In this document: positions 11,291 to 64,000 of the stretch, in pieces
Layout: every line of letters starts with the position of its first letter
Numbering within the stretch: position 1 is the stretch's first letter
NCBI GenBank assembly: GCA_964421915.1
Contig: CAYQZB010000005.1
Span: 18,761 to 82,760, forward strand
Origin: an uncultured Lachnospiraceae bacterium
Lineage (GTDB): Bacteria; Bacillota; Clostridia; Lachnospirales; Lachnospiraceae
DNA: 64,000 nt
Direction of reading: 5' to 3'
The notes under the pieces: generated by a model
Told to the model about the DNA's origin: nothing
Database searches by the model: none
What the model saw: only the letters and a program-made list of their open reading frames with translations
Translations under genes and position numbers: made by a program

Positions 11291-11379
11291 AAAATATATC
11301 TAAGGCAGATTTGTCTGCTTTTTAGCGGCGGTTTTTCAATCCTATTTGAGTCGCAGGTTATGGAAAGGCATGGTTATTA

Positions 11380-11493
11380 GGTTGAAAAATCACACTGATG
11401 TGCTGATTTTTCAACCTGATCGCAGATGAGAAACCGCCTGCGCGGATTTCTCATCGCGTGTCGTCGCAGTAAAACTGCTCTGACATGGGGGAT
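11380..11493 (+). repeat. Modular hairpin repeat/leader, copy 1 (hairpins H1, H3, H4 plus RBS; H2 absent)
   Basis: H1 at 11380-11416 is a perfect 13-bp stem (GGTTGAAAAATCA/TGATTTTTCAACC). H3 is at 11421-11458 (GATGAGAAACCGC..GCGGATTTCTCATC). H4 is at 11459-11485. GGGGGA then precedes the GTG at 11498. The core matches copies at 13541 and 62566. Confidence 0.8.
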
Positions 11494-11497
11494 TAGT

Positions 11498-12070: not shown

Positions 12071-13243
12071 ATGCAGGAAATCAATCAATTTATTGCAAAA
12101 ATAGAATATCAGAAAAGCCTGAACCAGAATTATCTGGTATATAAAAACGAGCAGGGAGCGGAAGATTATGAGCTTCGTATGCTGACGGAAAATCATATAG
12201 AATATTTGCTGCCGCTTGAACTGAGATCGATTGACGGCAGAGATGATATGTATTATCAAATAGGATCGTTGCAGCCTCTTAGCAAATTGTACAAGAGTAG
12301 GGAAATGAAGCTGGAGGATGTAAGAATTATTTTAATTGGATTAACGGGAGCAATCGCAGCAATACAGGAATATATGCTGGATGAAAGACATGTTGTGTTG
12401 CTGCCGGAGTATATTTTTATACATAGGGAAAGCAGGGAGATTCGTCTGCTTTTCCATCCGTTTTATGAGGTAGATATCAGAGAGGGAATAAGGGAATTTG
12501 CAGATTATATGATTGGCAGGATCGACCATACGGAACAGCAGGCAGTGATGATGGGTTATCAGTTTTACCGTATTGTCAGGGAGGATAATTTTATTATAGA
12601 GGATATTGTTAAACTATACCAAAAGGAGCAGCCGGCTGCAATAGCTAAAGACATTGAATATGCGCAGGAAAATGATTTTGAAATCAATGAATATGCATTA
12701 AAAGACAGCTCAGAAAACACAGCATCTGATATGTTGAAAAACACATCAAACAATACATGGCAGAATAGATTTGCAAAAACAAGCAGAACTTCATTAAAAA
12801 ATACGGACAGTTCAGAAGAAGGATATATAAAAAAAGATAAATATAGAATAAATGAGAAAGGCGCGGAAGAAATCAATGAAAATGCGGAAGCAAGCCTGAA
12901 GAAATTGCTTGTTTGCAGCGTTTTGGCATTAGCAAGCGGGTTTTTTCTGTGTTTTGGGATCGGTCATTATCAGCCGGATCGGATGGCAAAAGTCATGCTT
13001 GCATTGATCATGCTGATTTCAGTATTGGGAATCATCAAAGAAATCATGCATCATATCCGGAATCGGAAAGGAAAGAGTTCTGAGAAAAATAATTATGATG
13101 AAATTTTTTCCAACAGCGCAGATCTTTCCGATCAGAAAAAAGCTGATTTGAATAATTCCTATCAAAACAGGGATGATGCTGATAATATCTTTCAAGAGGA
13201 AATCAATGGGGGGACTGTGCCCCTTTCTGCAGATGGAAAATAG
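12071..13243 (+). CDS. Tad-locus-associated membrane protein (N-terminal domain resembling DUF6382-type proteins, central TM region)
   Basis: The N-terminus 'IEYQKSLNQNYLVYK...ELRMLTENHIEYLLPLELRSIDGRDDMYYQIGSLQPLSKLY' is a pattern I associate with proteins encoded next to clostridial Tad loci. Family assignment is from memory only. Confidence 0.45.
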   Translation: MQEINQFIAKIEYQKSLNQNYLVYKNEQGAEDYELRMLTENHIEYLLPLELRSIDGRDDMYYQIGSLQPLSKLYKSREMKLEDVRIILIGLTGAIAAIQEYMLDERHVVLLPEYIFIHRESREIRLLFHPFYEVDIREGIREFADYMIGRIDHTEQQAVMMGYQFYRIVREDNFIIEDIVKLYQKEQPAAIAKDIEYAQENDFEINEYALKDSSENTASDMLKNTSNNTWQNRFAKTSRTSLKNTDSSEEGYIKKDKYRINEKGAEEINENAEASLKKLLVCSVLALASGFFLCFGIGHYQPDRMAKVMLALIMLISVLGIIKEIMHHIRNRKGKSSEKNNYDEIFSNSADLSDQKKADLNNSYQNRDDADNIFQEEINGGTVPLSADGK

Positions 13244-13488
13244 CGGAAAATATATTAATAAAACCTATGTTAGTGGCGTTCTTTTGGATAAAGAAGAAAA
13301 ATGCCGATCGACGCAGATGATGGGATCAGAATTGGAAGAATTAGCCTGTTTAATCAGTAAATAAAAAAGAATGGAATTGAAAGTGATAAAAATTATGATA
13401 CAATAATGAGTAATAAGAAAGATTTGAAAGATCATATCAATGTGAAAAGTTTTTTATTACTATTTGTGTCGCTCCGGAATGGGGATAG

Positions 13489-13620
13489 ATTGAAAAATAA
13501 GATTTTTTAATCGGCAATTTGAGTCAGAGCCTCAATTGCTTTGATCGCAGATGAGAAACCGCCTGTGCGGATTTTTCATCGCGTGTCATCGCAGTAAAAC
13601 TGCTCTTGCATGGGGGATTT
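13489..13620 (+). repeat. Modular hairpin repeat/leader, copy 2 (degraded H1, then H2, H3, H4 plus RBS)
   Basis: Near-identical to copy 3 from 'AGATTGAAAAATAAGATT' onward, except for a ~10-nt deletion in H1. Ends in GGGGGA before the ATG at 13623. Confidence 0.8.
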
Positions 13621-13622
13621 TT

Positions 13623-16127: not shown

Positions 16128-16244
16128 AGAAAAATTGATATTAAGGAAAATTATTATTAAGCGTAAATTAATAATAATAGAAAACTGATATTAAAAAAAT
16201 TGATAATAATAGAAAACCGATATTAAAAGAAAATTGATATTAAA
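16128..16244. repeat. AT-rich degenerate direct repeats (AGAAAAYYGATATTAA x4, including a ~31-bp tandem pair) between yhaM and rlmD
   Basis: Copies start at about 16128, 16180, 16211 and 16229. TGATAATAATAGAAAAC(C/T)GATATTAAAA occurs twice in tandem. Confidence 0.6.
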
Positions 16245-16269
16245 TGAAAATCAATACAAGGATATTGAT

Positions 16270-17973
16270 ATGTACCGGAAAAATGAAATATATAATGTGA
16301 CAATAACGGATCTTGGCGCAGAGGGTGAAGGAATCGGAAAAATCGACGGCTATCCTCTGTTTGTGAAAGACGCCCTTCCCGGAGATGTGGTTGAAGCCAG
16401 ACTGACAAAGGTAAAGAAATCATATGCATATGCCAGAATGGAAAAACTGCTGCAGCCGTCACCGGACAGGATTGAGGCTGCCTGTCCTTATGCAAGACAG
16501 TGCGGGGGCTGCCAGATTCAGACATTGGCTTACCGGAAGCAGTTGGAATATAAGAAACGAAAGGTATTCAACAATCTGATGCGTATTGGCGGCGTGCCTG
16601 AAAAATTGCTGAAAGAGATCATGGAGCCGATCATCGGAATGCAGCCTGAGGATTGGGAAGATACCGGAGTTGACCGGGATGTTTCCGGATGCAGTCATGA
16701 CGAGCGCTGTGGCAAGATAAACGAGGATGGTGTTTCGGCGGGAAATCATACGACACAGAAGTACGAAGTCCCTGTCAGGTATCGGAATAAAGCGCAGTAT
16801 CCATTTGGCATGGATAAGGAAGGCAGAACCGTCTGCGGATTTTATGCAGGGAGGACGCACAATATCATAGCGAATACAGACTGTCTTTTGGGAGCAAAGG
16901 AAAATGAAAGTATCTTAAAGGCAGTCTTATCTTATATGGAGGAATCCCATATAAAACCTTACTGTGAAACAACAGGGAAAGGTCTGATCCGTCATGTGCT
17001 GATCCGCAAAAGCCGGGTAACGGGTCAGATCATGGTGTGTATCGTCATCAACGGACAAGATCTGCCTAAAAAAGAAGAATTGATTCAGAAACTTATGAAG
17101 ATTCCCGGAATATATTCTATCTCAATCAGCCCAAATGAAAAAAATACAAACGTTATTTTAGGAGATACCTATAAGACGATATGGGGAGATTCTAAGATTG
17201 CTGATGAAATATGCCAGACGGCGTTTGTAATATCAAAAGATAAGGATAAAAATATTGATGATCCGTATCCGTCAACTTTACGGTCGGTAGAAACAAATGC
17301 TTCCGGTAACAGGGAATCGGGAAGATGGGAAAGAATTGCGGAGACCGGAATCAGATTTAAAATTTCTCCCTTGTCTTTCTATCAGGTCAATCCGGTTCAG
17401 ATGGAGCGGCTTTATTCCACTGCGTTGGAATACGCGGGACTGACCGGAAAGGAAACTGTATGGGATCTTTATTGCGGTATTGGGACGATTTCCCTATTTC
17501 TTGCAAAGAGTGCAAAACATGTCTATGGTGTGGAGATCGTGCCGCAAGCGATCGAGGATGCCAAGGAGAATGCCGCATGGAATCAGATCGACAATGTTAC
17601 GTTTTATGTGGGAAAAGCGGAAGAGATATTACCACGATTTTATGAGCAACAGGTAACAGGTATACATGCATCCAGAATGGAAGATGGCGGACAATCAGGC
17701 ACATCTGAGGAAAAAGAGAAGGAAACAGACTCTATGAGGCATCCTGACGTCATCGTAGTGGATCCTCCCCGGAAAGGCTGTGATGAAGGATGCCTTTCAA
17801 CGATGGTCATGATGAAACCAGAGAGGATCGTCTATGTAAGCTGCGATTCCGGGACTCTGGCGAGGGATGTAAAGTATCTGCGTGAGAATGGATACGAGTT
17901 AAAAAGGGTGAGGGCCTGCGATATGTTCCCAAATACGGGGCATGTGGAGACGGTTGTCTTGCTTTCCAAGTAA
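16270..17973 (+). CDS. rlmD: 23S rRNA (uracil-C5)-methyltransferase RlmD/RumA family (TRAM plus Fe-S plus SAM MTase)
   Basis: TRAM-like N-terminus. Cys cluster 'CPYARQCGGCQ'. 'DLYCGIGTISL', 'VDPPRKG' and a C-terminal 'DMFPNTGHVETVVLLSK'. Confidence 0.9.
   Translation: MYRKNEIYNVTITDLGAEGEGIGKIDGYPLFVKDALPGDVVEARLTKVKKSYAYARMEKLLQPSPDRIEAACPYARQCGGCQIQTLAYRKQLEYKKRKVFNNLMRIGGVPEKLLKEIMEPIIGMQPEDWEDTGVDRDVSGCSHDERCGKINEDGVSAGNHTTQKYEVPVRYRNKAQYPFGMDKEGRTVCGFYAGRTHNIIANTDCLLGAKENESILKAVLSYMEESHIKPYCETTGKGLIRHVLIRKSRVTGQIMVCIVINGQDLPKKEELIQKLMKIPGIYSISISPNEKNTNVILGDTYKTIWGDSKIADEICQTAFVISKDKDKNIDDPYPSTLRSVETNASGNRESGRWERIAETGIRFKISPLSFYQVNPVQMERLYSTALEYAGLTGKETVWDLYCGIGTISLFLAKSAKHVYGVEIVPQAIEDAKENAAWNQIDNVTFYVGKAEEILPRFYEQQVTGIHASRMEDGGQSGTSEEKEKETDSMRHPDVIVVDPPRKGCDEGCLSTMVMMKPERIVYVSCDSGTLARDVKYLRENGYELKRVRACDMFPNTGHVETVVLLSK
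17936..17954. repeat. Left copy of a 19-bp direct repeat (CGGGGCATGTGGAGACGGT) inside the rlmD 3' end; putative attL
   Basis: The identical 19-mer recurs at 29204-29222, with further partial identity (GTCTTG) just downstream. Confidence 0.75.
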
Positions 17974-27120: not shown

Positions 27121-27310
27121 ATATGGATATAGCAAAAAGAATAACGGAACTTCGTGAGGAAGCGGGCGAGAATAGAAAAGAATTTTCGGTTCATACGGGG
27201 ATACCTGTCCGCACATTAGAGGACTGGGAGGCGGGGCGGCGCACTCCGCCGGAATATATCCCGCGGTTGATAGAGTATCAGATGAAGTATGAGAAATTGG
27301 TTAAAGAAAA
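27121..27310. repeat. ~190-bp direct repeat, copy 1 (covers the small HTH gene)
   Basis: Matches 28701-28890 with about seven substitutions counted by eye. Confidence 0.85.
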
Positions 27311-27317
27311 AGGGTAA
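27123..27317 (+). CDS. Small HTH DNA-binding protein (XRE-like), copy 1
   Basis: 'MDIAKRITELREEAGENRKEFSVHTGIPVRTLEDWEAGRRTP'. Confidence 0.7.
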   Translation: MDIAKRITELREEAGENRKEFSVHTGIPVRTLEDWEAGRRTPPEYIPRLIEYQMKYEKLVKEKG

Positions 27318-27557
27318 AGCAATCAAAAAGTTAAGAATTTTAAACGTATCGAATTCGATACGTTTAAAATGACTGTAACCGTGTGTAATTCAAGTCGGTT
27401 ATAATCAGGAGATTTTTTAAAACAATTTGTGGACGAAATTTTCGTCCGCAAATTGAGATGTTTGACTATGCTAATTGCCTCGAATTGGAGGCAGTTAAAA
27501 AATTTGTAGATGTTTGATCATTTTCGTGATGTCACGAAAATGATAGGGAGGATTGGT

Positions 27558-28412
27558 ATGGATAAAAAGATAATTACGCAATTAAAGAATCTATTTGATG
27601 GTATTATGCATGATGAAGATGGGGTGCAATATTGGCTTGCAAGAGAACTTATGGTGCCGCTCGGATATGAGAGGTGGGAAAATTTTAATAATGCTGTAAA
27701 TCGTGCCATGACAGCATGCAGTGAAAGCGGAATTGATTCTACGGATCATTTTCGTGAGATCACGAAATTGACCACTGTAGGAAAAGGAGCCCAAAGAGAA
27801 TTGCTTGATTATATGCTGACCCGATATGCATGCTATCTTATTGCGGAAAACGGTGATCCTCGCAAGGAACAGATTGCTTTTGCACAAAGTTATTTTGCAA
27901 TTCAAACTAGAAAGATGGAACTTATTGAGGAAAGAATATCTTATATTGAGAGGACAGAAGCTAGAGGAAGGCTTAGGGAGTCAGAAAAAAGATTATCACA
28001 GAATATCTATGAGCGTGGGGTTGATGATGCTGGGTTTGGGCGAATAAGATCTAAGGGCGATAAAGCACTGTTTGGAGGTCGTTCCACTAAGGAGATGAAA
28101 GATTGTCTTGGTGTGAAGGAGAACCGTCCTTTGGCAGATTTCCTTCCGACATTAACTATTGCAGCCAAAAATCTTGCTACAGAGATGACAAATTACAATG
28201 TTGAAGAGAAAGACCTTCAAGGAGAATCTGCGATTACAGTCGAGCATATCGAGAATAATACATCAGTTAGAAAAATGCTCGGCGAAAGAGGGATCAAGCC
28301 TGAGAATCTTCCGCGTTCAGAAGACATCAAAAAACTAGAGCGCAAGGTAAAGCGGGAGAATAAAAAACTTGCAGAAGAGTCTGGAAAGCTTAAACGAAAT
28401 TCAAATAAGTAG
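27558..28412 (+). CDS. dinD: DNA damage-inducible protein D (DinD) family
   Basis: 'YWLARELMVPLGYERWENF', 'LTRYACYLIAENGDPRKEQIAFAQSYFAIQTR'. GGGAGG RBS before the ATG at 27558. Confidence 0.8.
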   Translation: MDKKIITQLKNLFDGIMHDEDGVQYWLARELMVPLGYERWENFNNAVNRAMTACSESGIDSTDHFREITKLTTVGKGAQRELLDYMLTRYACYLIAENGDPRKEQIAFAQSYFAIQTRKMELIEERISYIERTEARGRLRESEKRLSQNIYERGVDDAGFGRIRSKGDKALFGGRSTKEMKDCLGVKENRPLADFLPTLTIAAKNLATEMTNYNVEEKDLQGESAITVEHIENNTSVRKMLGERGIKPENLPRSEDIKKLERKVKRENKKLAEESGKLKRNSNK

Positions 28413-28700: not shown

Positions 28701-28890
28701 ATATGGATATAGCAAAAAGAATAACGGAACTTCGTGAGGAAGCGGGCGAGAACAGAAAAGAATTTTCGGTTCATACGGGTATACCTGTCCGCACATTAGA
28801 GGATTGGGAGGCGGGGCGGCGCACCCCGCCGGAATATATCCCGCGGTTGATAGAGTATCAGATGAAGTATGAGAAGCTGGTGAAAGAAAA
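28701..28890. repeat. ~190-bp direct repeat, copy 2
   Basis: See 27121-27310. Confidence 0.85.
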
Positions 28891-28924
28891 AGCGGTTCCG
28901 GCAGCACGGCATATGATGTCGTGA
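28703..28924 (+). CDS. Small HTH DNA-binding protein (XRE-like), copy 2, with a different C-terminal tail
   Basis: The first 63 aa (through ...KLVKEK) are identical to copy 1; the tail is 'AVPAARHMMS'. Confidence 0.65.
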   Translation: MDIAKRITELREEAGENRKEFSVHTGIPVRTLEDWEAGRRTPPEYIPRLIEYQMKYEKLVKEKAVPAARHMMS

Positions 28925-41346: not shown

Positions 41347-42192
41347 GTGATATTGTTGAATACAACAAAGCAGACACACCAAAAACTGATGCATCAAGAA
41401 CAAATGCATCAGTTGGATTTAGAGAGATTGAAAGCATTCCGCTATATGGATGATGATTTTATGACTGCATGCCTTAAAGATAATATTGAGGGTGTGGAAC
41501 TGATACTACGGATTGTTTTAGGAAAAAAGGACATAAAAATCAAATCGGTTCGGACGCAGGAGGTATTGAAGAATCTGTGGGGACGTTCCGCCACGTTGGA
41601 CGTTCATGCGGTTGATGGCGATAAAAAGGAGTTTGACGTGGAAATCCAGCGCAAGGACGCAGGAGCAGGCGCAAAAAGGGCAAGGCACAACAGCAGCCTT
41701 TTGGACGCGCATATATTAAAGAGTGGTGAAGAAACAGAGGACATTCCTGACAGCTATGTTATCTTCATTACAGAAAAAGATGTTATGAAAGGAAATCAAC
41801 CGATATATCCGGTAGAGAGATTCGTTACAATCGGGGAAAAGAAAGTATTGTTTGGTGACGGTTCGCATATCCTATATGTGAATGGAACGTACAGGGGCGA
41901 TGATGAAATCGGTAAGCTGATGCACGATTTCTCATGTACTGATCCCGACGATATGAATTATGAAGCGCTTGCTAAAAAAGCACGATACTTTAAGCAAGAC
42001 GAGAAAGGAGTTGCAGCCATGTGTAAGATTATGGAAGATATGAGAAACGAAGCAGAATTGAATAAAGCAAAAAAGACAGCGGTTCATTTAATAAAATTAG
42101 GCAAGATGTCTTTAGAGGAAATAGCGGAGGCTACGGAGTTGTCTCTTGAAACAGTAAAAGAATTAGAAAGTCAAACAATGCAACCGGCATAA
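41347..42192 (+). CDS. PD-(D/E)XK nuclease family transposase-like protein (PDDEXK_2/Rpn-like)
   Basis: 'ATLDVHAVDGDKKEFDVEIQRKD' (D..ExQ block). C-terminal HTH-like tail. GTG start. Confidence 0.7.
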   Translation: MILLNTTKQTHQKLMHQEQMHQLDLERLKAFRYMDDDFMTACLKDNIEGVELILRIVLGKKDIKIKSVRTQEVLKNLWGRSATLDVHAVDGDKKEFDVEIQRKDAGAGAKRARHNSSLLDAHILKSGEETEDIPDSYVIFITEKDVMKGNQPIYPVERFVTIGEKKVLFGDGSHILYVNGTYRGDDEIGKLMHDFSCTDPDDMNYEALAKKARYFKQDEKGVAAMCKIMEDMRNEAELNKAKKTAVHLIKLGKMSLEEIAEATELSLETVKELESQTMQPA

Positions 42193-42220
42193 TCAATCTT
42201 CATGCACAAACCCCGACGAT

Positions 42221-42463
42221 ATGAATTATGAAGCGCTTGCTAAAAAAGTACGATACTTTAAGCAAGACGAGAAAGGAGTTGCAGCTATGTGTAAGATTAT
42301 GGAGGATATGAGGAATGAAGCGGCATTAAACACCGCTAGGGAAACCGCAGAAAGATTGATAAAAAAGGGGAAAATGACTCTTGAAGAAATTGCAGAGTGT
42401 GTTCCTCTATTATCTCTTGATGAACTAAGAGAAATTGAAATGAGAGTTATGCAGTTGGCATAA
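42221..42463 (+). CDS. Stand-alone copy of the C-terminal module (cassette 2, 80 aa)
   Basis: The N-terminal 34 aa are near-identical to residues of the 41347 protein; the C-terminal half has diverged. Expression is uncertain. Confidence 0.4.
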   Translation: MNYEALAKKVRYFKQDEKGVAAMCKIMEDMRNEAALNTARETAERLIKKGKMTLEEIAECVPLLSLDELREIEMRVMQLA

Positions 42464-42491
42464 TCAATCTTCATGCACAAACCCCGACAAT

Positions 42492-42731
42492 ATGAATTAT
42501 GAAGCGCTTGCTAAAAAAGCACGATACTTTAAGCAAGACGAGAAAGGAGTTGCAGTCATGTGTAAGATTATGGAGGATATGAGGAATGAAACCGCGATAA
42601 GAAATGCAAAAGAAATAGCGGTTCGTATGATTAAAGCAGGTAAAATGTCATTGGAGGATATAGCCGATTACACAGAGTTATCCCTTGATACAATAAAAGA
42701 ATTAGCAAGTCAGTCAATACAGTTGGCATAA
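42492..42731 (+). CDS. Stand-alone copy of the C-terminal module (cassette 3, 79 aa)
   Basis: As for cassette 2. Confidence 0.4.
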   Translation: MNYEALAKKARYFKQDEKGVAVMCKIMEDMRNETAIRNAKEIAVRMIKAGKMSLEDIADYTELSLDTIKELASQSIQLA

Positions 42732-42936
42732 TCAATCATATCAATCGAAATTTAATACAATAACAGCAGTCTCCTGCCCACACTTGACACGGTGTGGGCA
42801 TATTACTCTAAAATGGAGATCCCTGCCCCATGTACCGGGAATCCTTTTAAACAGTGGATTCTCGTTACAATGGATTGCCGTTTAGGAAGATCCTTGATAG
42901 GATAAAATTATCAAAGGATAGGGAGGAGCGGCATTT

Positions 42937-51698: not shown

Positions 51699-51859
51699 CT
51701 TTATCCTCCATGTTATGATTGTTTTTCAACCTGTCTCCATGTCAATTTATATCTTATTTTTTCATATTTAATGAGTATCCTTTTCAATAACCTGCAAACT
51801 TTGGGCCGCAGGCACAAATTTGCAATTGAAAAAATAAGATAATATCTTATTTTTTCAAT
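51699..51859 (-). repeat. Variant copy of the modular hairpin repeat (H1, H2-like hairpin, RBS end; long H3 hairpin absent), minus orientation
   Basis: H1 at 51825-51859 (ATTGAAAAAATAAGAT..ATCTTATTTTTTCAAT) overlaps the rSAM stop codon. H2-like hairpin at 51793-51824 (TGCAAACTTTG..CAAATTTGCA). On the minus strand the element ends 'ACATGGAGGATAAAGATG', like copy 3 'ACATGGAGGATAAATATG'. Confidence 0.65.
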
Positions 51860-62400: not shown

Positions 62401-62499
62401 TCAACATTGTTGACGCTGATCCTTCTGCCGACCTTCTACCTGATCATTAGGAAGCGACCAAAGAAAAGAAGAGTGAAAAGAGTTACCGAGGGAGATTAG
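59467..62499 (+). CDS. RND efflux permease (AcrB/HAE family)
   Basis: 1010 aa with a 12-TM layout and two large loops. 'GIGMMVDNSIVVLE' and 'LMLEGIVVNNGILMVD'. Confidence 0.9.
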   Translation: MHNFTKLCLKKPVSTVIIIMALVIFGIASVLGMNMQLTPDMQLPMIIAFTVYPQAGPEEVDRLVSQELEQVGATIEGLKSVTSQSMENISYMIYSFEYGTDIDEAYTDLQQEINTIKSSLPDECSDPILIVMDINAAQSMTLSITSDMGADVRSFVNDSLEPEIASIPNVARTAVTGGQEDYIRVQVVPELLSEYGLDMATLVTYITSSDFSIPAGTVDMGSQTLNVNTKVAYESIYDLEDIPILTARGSTIHLGDVAVISFARKDADSISRYNGEDNVTLDITKKQGTNAVELSRDVKKVIEKMAVDYPKMQVNIIYDSSDSIISSLTSVGETLALGVVFSMAVLFIFFGDFKASLIVGSSMPVSLLVTLLLMGACGFSLNVVTLGAMVIGIGMMVDNSIVVLEMCFQKRDQGYSFEEAALSAVKTVAMSITASTITTIVVYLPLALMKGLSGQIFGQLGFTIIFSLTASLIASVTLVPLCFAKYHPIEKKKFIIARGVKWFSEKYGKFLSKVLNKKLIAVLVTAAIVALTAFGITQLHTQLMAQSDEGTIAMSVNVRPGLGLESKDAVLRELEAFVAADPDVANYNVSASDGTSTISVTAYLRKDRSRATIEIVDEWNLALADMKDAEVLCTSTSTMSMGSMGTDSKEIDIRCAGLEQLKVASVQIAQAIQDVPGVVNVSTDFEDSSNKAEIVIDPVKATGAGILPAQAASALYAAKNGTEAMDLAINEKDYTVIVEYPKDRYDTIADLMNMQLTSNFGTGIILSDIAEVRYTDSPQTIKRADNYYQAAIVASLSDELKYEAMDQIDEIVAGIKLPSGVSYAEDQYTEMMTEEFMAIFQAILVALWLVFMVMTMQFESARYSGMIMFCIPFSLIGSVAMLWITGIPLDMTSMMGLLMLEGIVVNNGILMVDTTNQNLEEGMPVNEALVEAGKSRLRPILMTTLTTILSMVPMALGIGSNGQLMQGMAMVIVGGLVASTLLTLILLPTFYLIIRKRPKKRRVKRVTEGD

Positions 62500-62640
62500 A
62501 TTGAAAAATAAGATTGATATCTTATTTTTCAATCTGCAATTTGAGTCAGAGCCTCAAATTGCTTTGATCGCAGATGAGAAACCGCCTGCGCGGATTTCTC
62601 ATCGCGTGTCATCACAGCAAGCTGCTCTGACATGGAGGAT
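62500..62640 (+). repeat. Modular hairpin repeat/leader, copy 3 (most complete: H1, H2, H3, H4, RBS)
   Basis: H1 at 62500-62533 has a perfect 15-bp stem. H2 is GCAATTTGAG..CTCAAATTGC. H3 is GATGAGAAACCGC..GCGGATTTCTCATC. H4 is TGTCA..CAGC-AA-GCTG..TGACA. GGAGGA then precedes the ATG at 62645. Starts one base after the RND stop codon. Confidence 0.85.
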
Positions 62641-62644
62641 AAAT

Positions 62645-64000
62645 ATGAAAGAACGGCTTCGGATCAGACCCGTCTGGACGCTGCGGCGATATAATATCCG
62701 CAATCTTCCGCAGGATCTTCTTGCGGGCGTGATCATTGCGGCTGTTTCGATCCCGATCTCTATGGGTTATGCGCAGATCGCGGGGCTTCCCGGTGTTTAT
62801 GGCTTGTATGGCTCCGTATTTCCGATCCTTGTTTTTGCACTGTTATCCACATCACCGCAGTTTATCTTTGGAGTAGATGCCGCGCCGGCAGCGATCGTCG
62901 GGGCGGCGCTTTTACAGCTTGAAGTCATTCCGGAATCAGAGCAGGCGTTGGAGATCGTTCCGTTGATCACGCTGTTTACCGCAATGTGGCTGCTGCTCTT
63001 TTTCTTCTGTGGCGCGGGAAAGCTTGTTAATTATATCTCCATGCCTGTCATGGGCGGATTTATCACGGGCATCTGCTGTACGATCGTCTTGATGCAGCTG
63101 CCGAAGATGATGGGCGGAAGCTCCGGTGTAGGCGAGCTGTTTGAGCTGGCGTCGCATCTGATACATACATGCAGAGAGGTACACTGGCTTTCTCTTGGTC
63201 TTGGACTGTCTGCTTTGTTCATTTTATTACTTTCCAAAAAGCTGATACCAAAATTTCCTATGGCAGTCGTTGTCATGGCAGTAGGAGCTATCCTTTCCGT
63301 AACGTGTGATCTGAAAGAAAGGGGTGTCGCTCTGTTGCCCGGTGTAACACCGGGACTTCCGGCATTTTCTTTTCCGAACTTGGGCGCGGTGGAGCATTCG
63401 GACATCATCGGCATGAGCATGACGGTTGCCATCGTGATCATGGCGGAGACGCTGCTTGCAGAGAATAATTTTGCCCATAAGAATGGCTACCGACTGGAAG
63501 ACAATCAGGAGATTCTGGCGTTTTCTATGGGGAATCTGGCGGCGGCATTTACCGGCTGCTGTCCGATCAATGGTTCCGTATCCCGGACGACCATGGGAGA
63601 ACAGTACGGTGCAAAGAGTCAGCTGACAGGGATTGTGGCAGGACTTTTGATGATTGTCGTGCTTTTGTGGGGAAGCGGATTTATCCAGTATCTTCCGGTG
63701 CCGGTGCTGACGGCGATTGTGGTGAGCGCACTGATGGGCGCGATGGAGTTTCACCTTGCGGGGAAGCTGTGGAGGGTGAACCGGACGGAATTTTATATTT
63801 TTATGGGAGCCTTTTTGAGCGTGCTTTTTCTGGGTACGATCTACGGCGTCATCGTCGGCATCGTTCTTTCTTTTGTCAATGTGATCGTAAAGTCCGCCGA
63901 TCCTCCCAGATGCTTTCTGGGTATCCTGCCCGGACATACTGATCTTGTTGATATTTCCAAATATAAACATATCTATCCGATTGAAGACATTGTGATCTAT
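62645..64000 (+). CDS. SulP-family anion transporter, 3' end beyond the window (not in the ORF track because no stop is reached)
   Basis: Hand translation MKERLRIRPVWTLRRYNIRNLPQDLLAGVIIAAVSIPISMGYAQIAGLPGVYGLYGS... and later 'DNQEILAFSMGNLAAAFTGCCPINGSVSRT'. Both are SulP hallmarks. The long minus-strand ORFs here are shadows. Confidence 0.85.
   Translation, partial: MKERLRIRPVWTLRRYNIRNLPQDLLAGVIIAAVSIPISMGYAQIAGLPGVYGLYGSVFPILVFALLSTSPQFIFGVDAAPAAIVGAALLQLEVIPESEQALEIVPLITLFTAMWLLLFFFCGAGKLVNYISMPVMGGFITGICCTIVLMQLPKMMGGSSGVGELFELASHLIHTCREVHWLSLGLGLSALFILLLSKKLIPKFPMAVVVMAVGAILSVTCDLKERGVALLPGVTPGLPAFSFPNLGAVEHSDIIGMSMTVAIVIMAETLLAENNFAHKNGYRLEDNQEILAFSMGNLAAAFTGCCPINGSVSRTTMGEQYGAKSQLTGIVAGLLMIVVLLWGSGFIQYLPVPVLTAIVVSALMGAMEFHLAGKLWRVNRTEFYIFMGAFLSVLFLGTIYGVIVGIVLSFVNVIVKSADPPRCFLGILPGHTDLVDISKYKHIYPIEDIVIY

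Follow-up and report, generated by a model that had tools for sequence, protein, structure and literature searches.

Modular hairpin repeats that supply the Shine-Dalgarno sequence of downstream genes, a probable family of inserted elements in gut Lachnospiraceae

Described intergenic repeats and the element upstream of sulP

The REP2 repeat of Neisseria (CREN) is 120-150 bp long, has no terminal inverted repeats, forms internal stem-loops and lies immediately upstream of open reading frames (ORFs) in the sense orientation, with a promoter, a ribosome-binding site (RBS) and an ATG of its own; inverted-repeat (IR) sequences on Borrelia plasmids are similar to REP2 (PMC3184786). The mycobacterial MIRU are short intercistronic operon repeats that are co-oriented with transcription and polymorphic between species, and their ends touch stop and start codons (PMC3184786). 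The BOX elements of Streptococcus pneumoniae are assembled from boxA, boxB and boxC modules, form hairpins, are transcribed with their neighbours, affect expression and vary in size by module gain and loss, and the Correia (NEMIS) and ERIC elements are transcribed, hairpin-forming repeats with an orientation-dependent effect on mRNA processing (PMC3049150). The element analysed here occupies 145 nt (62500-62644) of a 64,000-nt stretch from an uncultured Lachnospiraceae bacterium (GCA_964421915.1, contig CAYQZB010000005.1, positions 18,761-82,760 of the forward strand; the whole 64-kb stretch is referred to as the window). It belongs to a family that we place among these small, structured repeats of intergenic regions and that resembles the rare type bearing an RBS.

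The gene upstream of the element encodes an AcrB-type RND pump of 1010 aa (Pfam ACR_tran, 4e-200; TAG stop at 62497-62499), and the gene downstream encodes a SulP permease (Pfam Sulfate_transp, 1.4e-75; ATG at 62645). A first, sequence-only reading of the window had described four hairpins and an RBS between the RND stop and the sulP start, and each of these features was confirmed when positions 62500-62644 were read. The hairpins are numbered H1 to H4 and are followed by a Shine-Dalgarno (SD) sequence (Table 1). In H3 of the sulP copy, an A bulges out of the 5' arm and the 3' arm has one additional A. As RNA, the copy is far more stably folded than shuffled sequences (z = -6.8), and its minimum-free-energy fold uses a pairing of GTCAGAGC with GCTCTGAC, which competes with H4. 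The termini, ATTGAAAAAT... on the left and ...GGAGGATTAG or ...CATGGAGGATTAG on the right, form no inverted repeat and are not complementary. Sequestration of the SD by H4 was considered and ruled out, the SD being unpaired in the consensus, 1-5 nt 3' of H4.

REP2 is the closest known analogue, likened here by description and not by sequence homology. Both are portable, RBS-bearing 5' untranslated regions (UTRs) of like size and orientation. REP2 carries a promoter and an ATG, whereas the Lachnospiraceae element has no conserved promoter and the start codon is the gene's own; a promoter search turned up only a palindromic match (9/12) within H1 of the A type, and nothing in copies of the B or C type. 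The element is said to work like REP2 and is not assigned as a member. It has four swappable hairpins where REP2 has two, it is found in Firmicutes and not in Proteobacteria, and its copy number is seemingly higher, at 3 per 64 kb compared with 23-26 per Neisseria genome. Stacking on older copies and an SD-like left flank, both seen here, are unmentioned for REP2 in the review consulted (PMC3184786).

The BOX, BIME and MIRU families are more distant. The REP/BIME sequences of Escherichia coli act as mRNA stabilisers. They have also been reported as attenuators (PMC3049150). They consist of imperfect palindromes of about 35 nt (compare H3, 38 nt and bulged) arranged in mosaics in the transcribed intergenic regions of operons. 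Unlike the present element, they lie 3' of genes, have no fixed relation to the next start codon and supply no SD, and REPs are linked to RAYT transposases. BOX shares with the element a Firmicute host, modularity, hairpins and module gain and loss; it differs in its terminal inverted repeats, its target duplications and its enrichment between convergent genes (Table 1 of PMC3049150), and it has no fixed distance to a start codon and supplies no SD. MIRU are similar in their intercistronic, co-oriented placement. They differ in that they contain small ORFs overlapping the flanking genes (translational coupling) and form variable-number tandem repeats, whereas tandem copies are rare here: the sole full tandem seen is a direct pair of complete D-type copies with a period of 143 nt at locus L033 (4454-4762, minus strand; L-numbers label the loci compared in public genomes and metagenomes). 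No ORF was conserved across the subfamilies of the element, the frame opened by the NTG of H1 ending in H2 in B- and C-type copies and differing in A-type copies. Correia and ERIC differ in being single long hairpins made of terminal inverted repeats, inserted in either orientation at variable distances from genes.

Family size, placement and hairpin conservation

The main scan was performed with the exact H3 core (GATGAGAAACCGC-N4-GCGGATTT-N-TCATC) against one genome per species, and all of its counts are lower bounds. At least 107 loci were found in 21 species-representative metagenome-assembled genomes, with up to 19 copies per genome among the matches listed. The carriers are labelled Lachnospiraceae, Lachnospira, Eisenbergiella, Acetatifactor, Eubacteriales or Clostridiales, and originate from the guts of deer, rabbit, chicken and mouse. 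A second, independent scan of metagenomes, anchored on the A-type H2 alone, identified 28 further loci, woodrat cecum assemblies among them. One subfamily predominates in each genome among the matches listed. Within the window, the 45-nt core is located at 62566, at 11418 (0 mismatches) and at 13543 (2 mismatches), and had no match in 100 shuffles. The last two sites, each followed some 35 nt further on by an SD and a start codon, agree with the earlier observation that the core recurs upstream of a TadE-like and an HtrA-like gene.

Among 2.9 million viral contigs, none matched the core, and phage records and plasmids gave no match to the full 145-nt element. No Rfam 15 family was matched at the gathering threshold across the whole window, and at E values up to 10 the segment 62400-62700 yielded chance-level matches alone; the comparison with Rfam for which the sequence-only reading had called thus identified no known family. 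Full-text literature searches, including one with the core sequence as a literal string, returned no description of the family, which is apparently uncatalogued so far as Rfam and the searched literature go. Public assemblies of the same or sister organisms (L109, L110, L116-L119, L124, L125) have contig ends within the element or exactly at the start codon that follows it, which is the usual behaviour of a high-copy repeat.

Placement was scored by the presence of a co-oriented ORF of at least 60 aa with an SD and a start codon 35-44 nt past the core end. Among the matches listed, 85 of the 112 core copies (76%) were placed in this way, and most of the remainder reach a start codon via another element or module. 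In the independent H2-anchored set, the proportion was 18/26 (69%). The SD lies in the repeated sequence itself, as GGAGG, GGGGG or GAGG, 5-7 nt before the start codon. Orientation and position are locked, and the 3' end of the element provides the SD of the downstream gene. The sequence-only reading had named position and orientation bias among the copies as a check on the element, and the bias was strong. The genes served encode peptidyl-tRNA hydrolase (Pth), CTP synthase, a phosphoglucomutase-family enzyme, shikimate kinase, MgsA, ComEC, an SDR and a lipase, in addition to the TadE-like, HtrA-like and SulP proteins of the window. These downstream genes are functionally unrelated, which argues against a ligand-specific riboswitch. 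As a separate observation, L008, L050, L058, L061, L085 and L104 carry partial H3-H4-SD elements so close to the upstream ORF that a TGA within the core (GATGAGAAA) closes the upstream reading frame; the upstream frames at these loci are stop-to-stop ORFs and not annotated genes.

The structure statistics were obtained from an alignment of 59 distinct full-length copies (A2), with 4 helices and 45 pairs. Nineteen of the 45 pairs were changed on both sides, with double changes in 7/14 pairs of H1, 4/8 of H2, 2 at the base of H3 and 6/8 of H4. Paired cells made up 97.2% compared with 86.4% in shuffles, and the covariation score was 0.291 compared with 0.105 in shuffles and at most 0.051 with slid partners. 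Both the apical and the basal pairs of H1 covary across the 59 copies, and the covarying base pairs of H3 are CGC/GCG, GGC/GCC and CAT/ATG. The hairpins are maintained by compensatory changes. Within the H3 core, 31 nt are invariant in more than 100 copies from several genera, which is partly ascertainment.

A further pairing would join two of the modules. In the A (GTCAGAGC/GCTCTGAC), B (TTTCTGAGCG/CGCTCAGAAA) and C (CCGGAGCG/CGCTCCGG) subfamilies, the loop of H2 and the 3' strand of H4 are complementary. In this candidate helix, 89% of cells were paired compared with 80% in shuffles and 20-42% in slid controls, and three pairs covary. The complementarity would represent either an alternative long-range RNA helix or tertiary pairing, or an internal inverted repeat.

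Modules are lost and swapped. Copies found through other modules carry different H3 hairpins in the same place (GTCGGAAAT/ATTTCCGAC, GACGCAAAT/ATTTGCGTC and GCCGAGAAT/ATTCTCGGC), and in some copies H3 is cleanly deleted between TCGCAG repeats. H1 or H2 is missing in some copies, such as H2 in the tadE copy of the window. The E-type short form consists of H1, H2' and GGTTATGGAAAGGCATGGTTATTA-ATG, without H3 and H4.

The role of H1 as a terminator, which had been proposed from the sequence, was not supported by a consensus scan, which called no terminator in A-, B- or C-type copies. This is because the T-tract pairs with the upstream A-tract, a layout that resembles a bidirectional terminator. 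Nor was there support for H1 as a terminator lost behind promoters: its presence was not associated with a promoter-like site or with a nearby upstream gene end (Fisher p = 0.6 and 0.8, respectively).

Probable insertion at start codons and competing explanations

The HtrA neighbourhood (A24 prepilin peptidase, TadE-like, DUF6382/FHA, HtrA, HD, TRAM methyltransferase) is syntenic in relatives. The HtrA proteins of L111, L112, L114, L115, L120 and L121 show 73-89% amino acid identity, and no element is present upstream of htrA at these loci, which have their own SD and the same promoter (e.g. TTGACT..TATGATAAAA). The element is therefore an insertion, absent from the orthologous loci of related species, and the conservation of the promoter in these orthologues places the htrA copy inside a 5' UTR. 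The left edge of the oldest htrA remnant coincides with the ancestral start, L112 reading ..AAGAAAGATAAGGTTGTCAT-ATG and the window ..AAGAAAGATTTGAAAGATCATATCAA-TGTGAAAAG. A different arrangement, an A-type copy followed by a mini-element, is present in L116-L119, where HtrA is 96% identical. The right junction of the window htrA copy, GGGGGATTTTT (CATGGGGGATTTTT-ATG), is a hybrid of the element 3' end and a locus-specific spacer like that in L116 (GAGGGATTTTT-ATG).

A-type copies at unrelated loci show 94% identity, within and between genomes alike. The sulP copy is 96-98% identical to copies in other species, compared with 88-90% for the RND and sulP coding DNA of the nearest genome (L021). 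The loops and linkers are conserved as strongly as the stems, which fits young copies better than structural constraint.

The left flanks were tested for GGAG, GAGG or AGGA at -16 to -4 relative to the NTG of H1. Among flanks unrecognisable as another element, 40/56 (71%) were SD-like, compared with 9.3% of control windows. At least 18 further left flanks consist of the 3' stump of another element (half of H4, SD and TTAG), often of another subfamily, and the window copies at 11380 and 13489 are both preceded by such stumps; the newer copy follows the 3' stump of an older one. TAG or TTAG occurs before H1, and again at the element end before the start codon, in most copies. The left and right SD-spacer segments of one copy were more alike than within-subfamily permuted pairs (A, p = 0.008; B, p = 0.0006). 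The direct repeats that flank many copies are 8-23 nt long and span the SD, the spacer and sometimes the start codon; examples include L018, with 23 identical nt that include the unusual ATGGAAAAT, and L077, with 19 nt. Gene starts of the form NTG-AAAAA, which is the sequence of the H1 5' arm, were found in 11% of element-bearing genes compared with 3% of other genes in the same loci (p = 0.002).

Taken together, we consider it probable (at roughly 70%) that the sulP element belongs to a family of interspersed repeats of gut Lachnospiraceae that are short (~95-150 bp), modular and non-autonomous and insert at translation initiation regions. It looks like a selfish or co-opted mobile repeat and not like a riboswitch. 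The earlier suggestion of a mobile cassette, inserted between genes and bringing a structured leader and an RBS with it, is broadly supported in this form by the copies in 21 genomes, their fixed placement, the htrA polymorphism and the stacked, tandem and deleted copies; its MITE-like component fared less well, as discussed below.

In the proposed mechanism, both ends of the element would mimic an initiation region (SD, ~6 nt, NTG, AAAAAT). Integration would occur where the start codon stood, pushing the resident SD upstream and leaving the gene translatable from the SD of the element. As the gene would stay translatable, an insertion would be nearly neutral, which could explain the extreme positional bias, and as the 3' end of the element would itself be a new target, stacking could be explained as well. 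Spread may proceed by recombination or template switching at microhomology, or by a recombinase that recognises the hairpins. Once inserted, the element would be co-transcribed as a 5' UTR or intercistronic spacer, which is necessary if its SD is to be used by the gene, and the stable hairpins would probably modulate mRNA processing or stability while the SD is left single-stranded 3' of H4. The combined proposal, that the element homes to initiation regions by end mimicry, maybe without a transposase, and places a covarying two-state RNA before many unrelated genes, is a tentative one that we hold to be rather doubtful as a whole. Perhaps ~100 copies are present per genome, as extrapolated from the three in the 64-kb window.

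Several observations weigh against the insertion reading. G-U and A-C mismatches are about equally frequent, one column excepted, so that selection on RNA is indistinguishable from selection on single-stranded DNA, as is the strand that folds. The direct-repeat signal between left and right flanks is small in the mean, carried by a subset of copies and not significant in subfamily C. An all-versus-all comparison of 995 flanking ORFs (~0.8 Mb, 107 loci) revealed no recurrent paralogue and just orthologous neighbourhoods, with no hidden Markov model (HMM) search for single-copy enzymes such as RAYTs. A metagenome search with the pattern expected of an htrA allele lacking the A-type copy, which would be a strain-level empty site, gave no match; exact-protein look-ups for TadE and RND returned just contigs that carry the element or break in it, and no empty site. 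Orthologous loci at times carry different subfamilies (L003/L053, L022/L035), a pattern that an old functional element under concerted evolution could also give. Strong functional selection would account equally well for the covariation and for copies that are more alike than their coding flanks.

One alternative is a shared cis-regulatory RNA leader, whether a riboswitch or the site of a global RNA-binding protein or RNase, in which H3 is recognised and the H2-loop/H4 pairing is the switch. The covariation in every helix and in the alternative long-range helix, the invariance of the 31-nt H3 core (with its part of ascertainment) and the strict sense orientation beside the SD are all consistent with such a leader, and there is a precedent in Neisseria REP2, which lies upstream of genes co-regulated on host-cell contact (PMC3184786). 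A regulon sits poorly with unrelated downstream genes, with the lack of an Rfam match and with orthologues at 73-89% identity that have no element. Any of H1, H2 and H3 can be lost, or give way to an unrelated hairpin, while the gene stays immediately downstream, copies are tandem, stacked and internally deleted, and loops and linkers are as conserved as stems. The shared riboswitch or co-regulatory leader that the sequence-only reading had offered is, on this evidence, unlikely, although a repeat of this kind may have been co-opted.

A classical MITE (miniature inverted-repeat transposable element) moved in trans by an insertion sequence (IS) transposase would take the 8-10-bp pairs GTCAGAGC...GCTCTGAC (A) and TTTCTGAGCG...CGCTCAGAAA (B) as terminal inverted repeats and TAG/TTAG as the target duplication. 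Inverted repeats do surround H3 in subfamilies A, B and C, TAG/TTAG recurs at both ends of most copies, and the copy number, subfamily bursts and internal deletions are MITE-like. These inverted repeats are, however, internal (H2 loop and H4 3' strand), since conserved sequence extends ~45 nt further left and 15 nt further right, and the real ends, ATTGAAAAAT... and ...GGAGGATTAG, form no inverted repeat. The direct repeats at the flanks cover the SD, spacer and start codon and have no fixed length (8 to 23 nt), and no IS-like paralogue or partner transposase was seen near the copies, nor any match in plasmids, phages or viral contigs. A MITE in the strict sense thus appears improbable.

Mobilisation in single-stranded DNA form, in the manner of REP/BIME, by a RAYT or an IS200/IS605-type Y1 transposase that reads the bulged H3, with the other hairpins as mosaic accessories, is quite improbable. 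In its favour, the ~38-nt H3 forms an imperfect palindrome in which the bulges are conserved and the loop varies, and a conserved GAT lies on the 5' side of its foot; modules are combined in mosaic fashion; and insertion occurs right 3' of a conserved TTAG/TAG, with the same tetranucleotide at the element 3' end. IS200/IS605 elements have the same arrangement, with a short target on the 5' side and a matching tetranucleotide at the 3' end. Against such a mover, no Y1 transposase gene was evident (no HMM search was aimed at it), E-type copies and deletion variants that lack H3 are still start-adjacent, and a 4-nt target would be insufficient for exact placement at start codons in 70-76% of copies.

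An in-frame coding insertion like the Rickettsia palindromic elements, giving a translated N-terminal extension, is hardly credible and was rejected, as was a leader peptide, on the ground that the subfamilies have different frames and stop codons: no stop interrupts the frame that runs from TTG 62501 to the sulP ATG (read by eye), core ATGs at 11426 and 13551 are in frame with tadE and htrA, with the ORF listing extending both genes back to them, and several database HtrA homologues are 495-522 aa long, but in the sulP copy the ATG of the core is not in the gene's frame, the core-to-start spacing varies over 35-44 nt, B- and C-type copies have stops in H2 in the frame of the H1 NTG, and in every copy a strong SD lies 5-7 nt before a conserved N-terminus that aligns with element-less orthologues (in L112 and L121, which have no element upstream, the extra HtrA length is not derived from it).

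Copies in the window and meaning for the hosts

The coordinates of the sulP copy, its parts and the other copies are given in Table 1. The tadE copy has an SD of GGGGGA (11487-11492) and an H1 that differs from that of the sulP copy (GGTTGAAAAATCA..), and its RNA fold gave z = -7.4 relative to shuffles. In the relatives L131, L138 and L144, a tadE-type copy with H2 is present at an apparently orthologous gene start, as judged by similar first codons. The E-type 3' end retained by the older element before the tadE copy is also found before H1 in L003, L016, L024, L095 and L098. In the htrA copy, H2 has a 1-nt deletion and H3 has two substitutions, H4 is present and the SD is GGGGGA (13612-13617). 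The C-type remnant before it is comparable to L112 and L121 (..AAGAAAGAT(A/T)AGGTT..ATG).

The sequence-only reading had also listed a variant of the element upstream of a methyltransferase gene at 51699-51859. This region is indeed related, with an H1 at 51859-51825, an SD and a start codon, and lies on the minus strand. It lacks H3, H4 and the core, has a different H2 (H2', GCAAATTTGTGCCTGCGGCCCAAAGTTTGC) and includes two deleted fragments, so that it is a composite and not a simple variant.

Table 1. Positions of the sulP copy, its modules and the other copies and sites in the 64-kb window.
Feature	Position	Strand	Remarks
Complete A-type copy, H1-H2-H3-H4-SD	62500..62644	+	Fills the gap from the RND stop to the sulP ATG
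H1, ATTGAAAAATAAGAT-tgat-ATCTTATTTTTCAAT	62500..62533	+	Perfect 15-bp stem, loop TGAT; A-tract/stem/T-tract palindrome
H2, GCAATTTGAG-tcagagc-CTCAAATTGC	62536..62562	+	10-bp stem
H2 loop segment, GTCAGAGC	62545..62552	+	Complementary to GCTCTGAC at 62624-62631 (H4 3' strand)
H3 core hairpin	62569..62606	+	38 nt; 9-bp and 4-bp stems, variable tetraloop
H4	62607..62632	+	Outer stem TGTCA/TGACA, inner stem CAGC/GCTG
SD, GGAGGA	62634..62639	+	Supplied by the element; 5 nt before sulP ATG 62645
Decayed older element, TTTTTCAATC-CTATTTGAGTC-GCAGGTTATGGAAAGGCATGGTTATTAG	11332..11379	+	Retains the E-type 3' end
A-type copy without H2	11380..11497	+	Variant H1 11380-11416, H3, H4; ends at GTG 11498 of the TadE-like gene
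Promoter-like site, TTGAAA-16-TACAAT with upstream TG	13377..13404	+	Kept in orthologues without the element
Decayed C-type remnant, TGTGAAAAGTTTTTTATTACTATTTGTGTCGCTCCGGAATGGGGATAG	13441..13488	+	Left edge at the ancestral htrA start codon position
A-type copy, apical H1 deleted	13489..13622	+	Ends at ATG 13623 of the HtrA-like gene
Composite region	51699..51859	-	E-type short element, then two internally deleted fragments; SD GGAGGA, methyltransferase ATG 51698

Further features were noted in the window. A sub-threshold Rfam match to the DnaX frameshift element spans 62446-62506 (E = 0.011; 21.4 bits, where the gathering score is 35); its source is the Lys-rich AAAGAAAAGAAGAG run with which the RND gene ends, followed by H1, and it was judged to be due to chance. 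The DUF6382 gene at 12071-13243 encodes 390 aa, compared with 469-575 aa in the syntenic L111, L112, L114 and L115, where the longer orthologues end in Yop-YscD_cpl/FHA domains; by this comparison the window copy appears to be C-terminally truncated, just upstream of the repeat stack (see also 13244-13376). Immediately before the TRAM/tRNA-U5-methyltransferase ORF (16234-17973), and reaching into its start, are tandem 32-nt repeats (AAATTRATAATAATAGAAAACYGATATTAAAA) at 16165-16245. The two copies of a 192-nt direct repeat (27121-27312 and 28701-28892; 96% identity, at a distance of 1.58 kb) lie on either side of a Bro-N domain ORF (27510-28412), with a small HTH_31 ORF adjoining, and the region may be what is left of a mobile or phage-like island. 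At 41932-42737 there are three 267-nt units in tandem (100%, 66% and 82% identity), at and after the 3' end of an ORF (41347-42192) whose product has weak matches to PDDEXK_2 (PD-(D/E)XK nuclease family transposase) and Sigma70_r4.

The Lachnospiraceae are dominant gut commensals, and the repeat sits on the RBS of a sizeable fraction of their genes. It fragments short-read metagenome assemblies, with contigs breaking exactly there, and it misleads gene callers into N-terminally extended ORFs, as for the TadE-like and HtrA-like ORFs here. The element must be transcribed and unfolded whenever these genes are expressed, and therefore probably shapes their expression. To organisms with few genetic parts, its copies offer 5' UTR/RBS cassettes that are natural and portable and whose structure is backed by covariation. 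The finding raises the question of how a small non-coding element reaches start codons with ~70-76% precision and is yet harmless. If the two-state leader is real, the choice between local H2/H4 and the long-range helix could act as a global lever on translation or mRNA stability, for the host or for the element, and if the targeting of initiation regions holds true, it would represent a new insertion-site logic for bacterial repeats.

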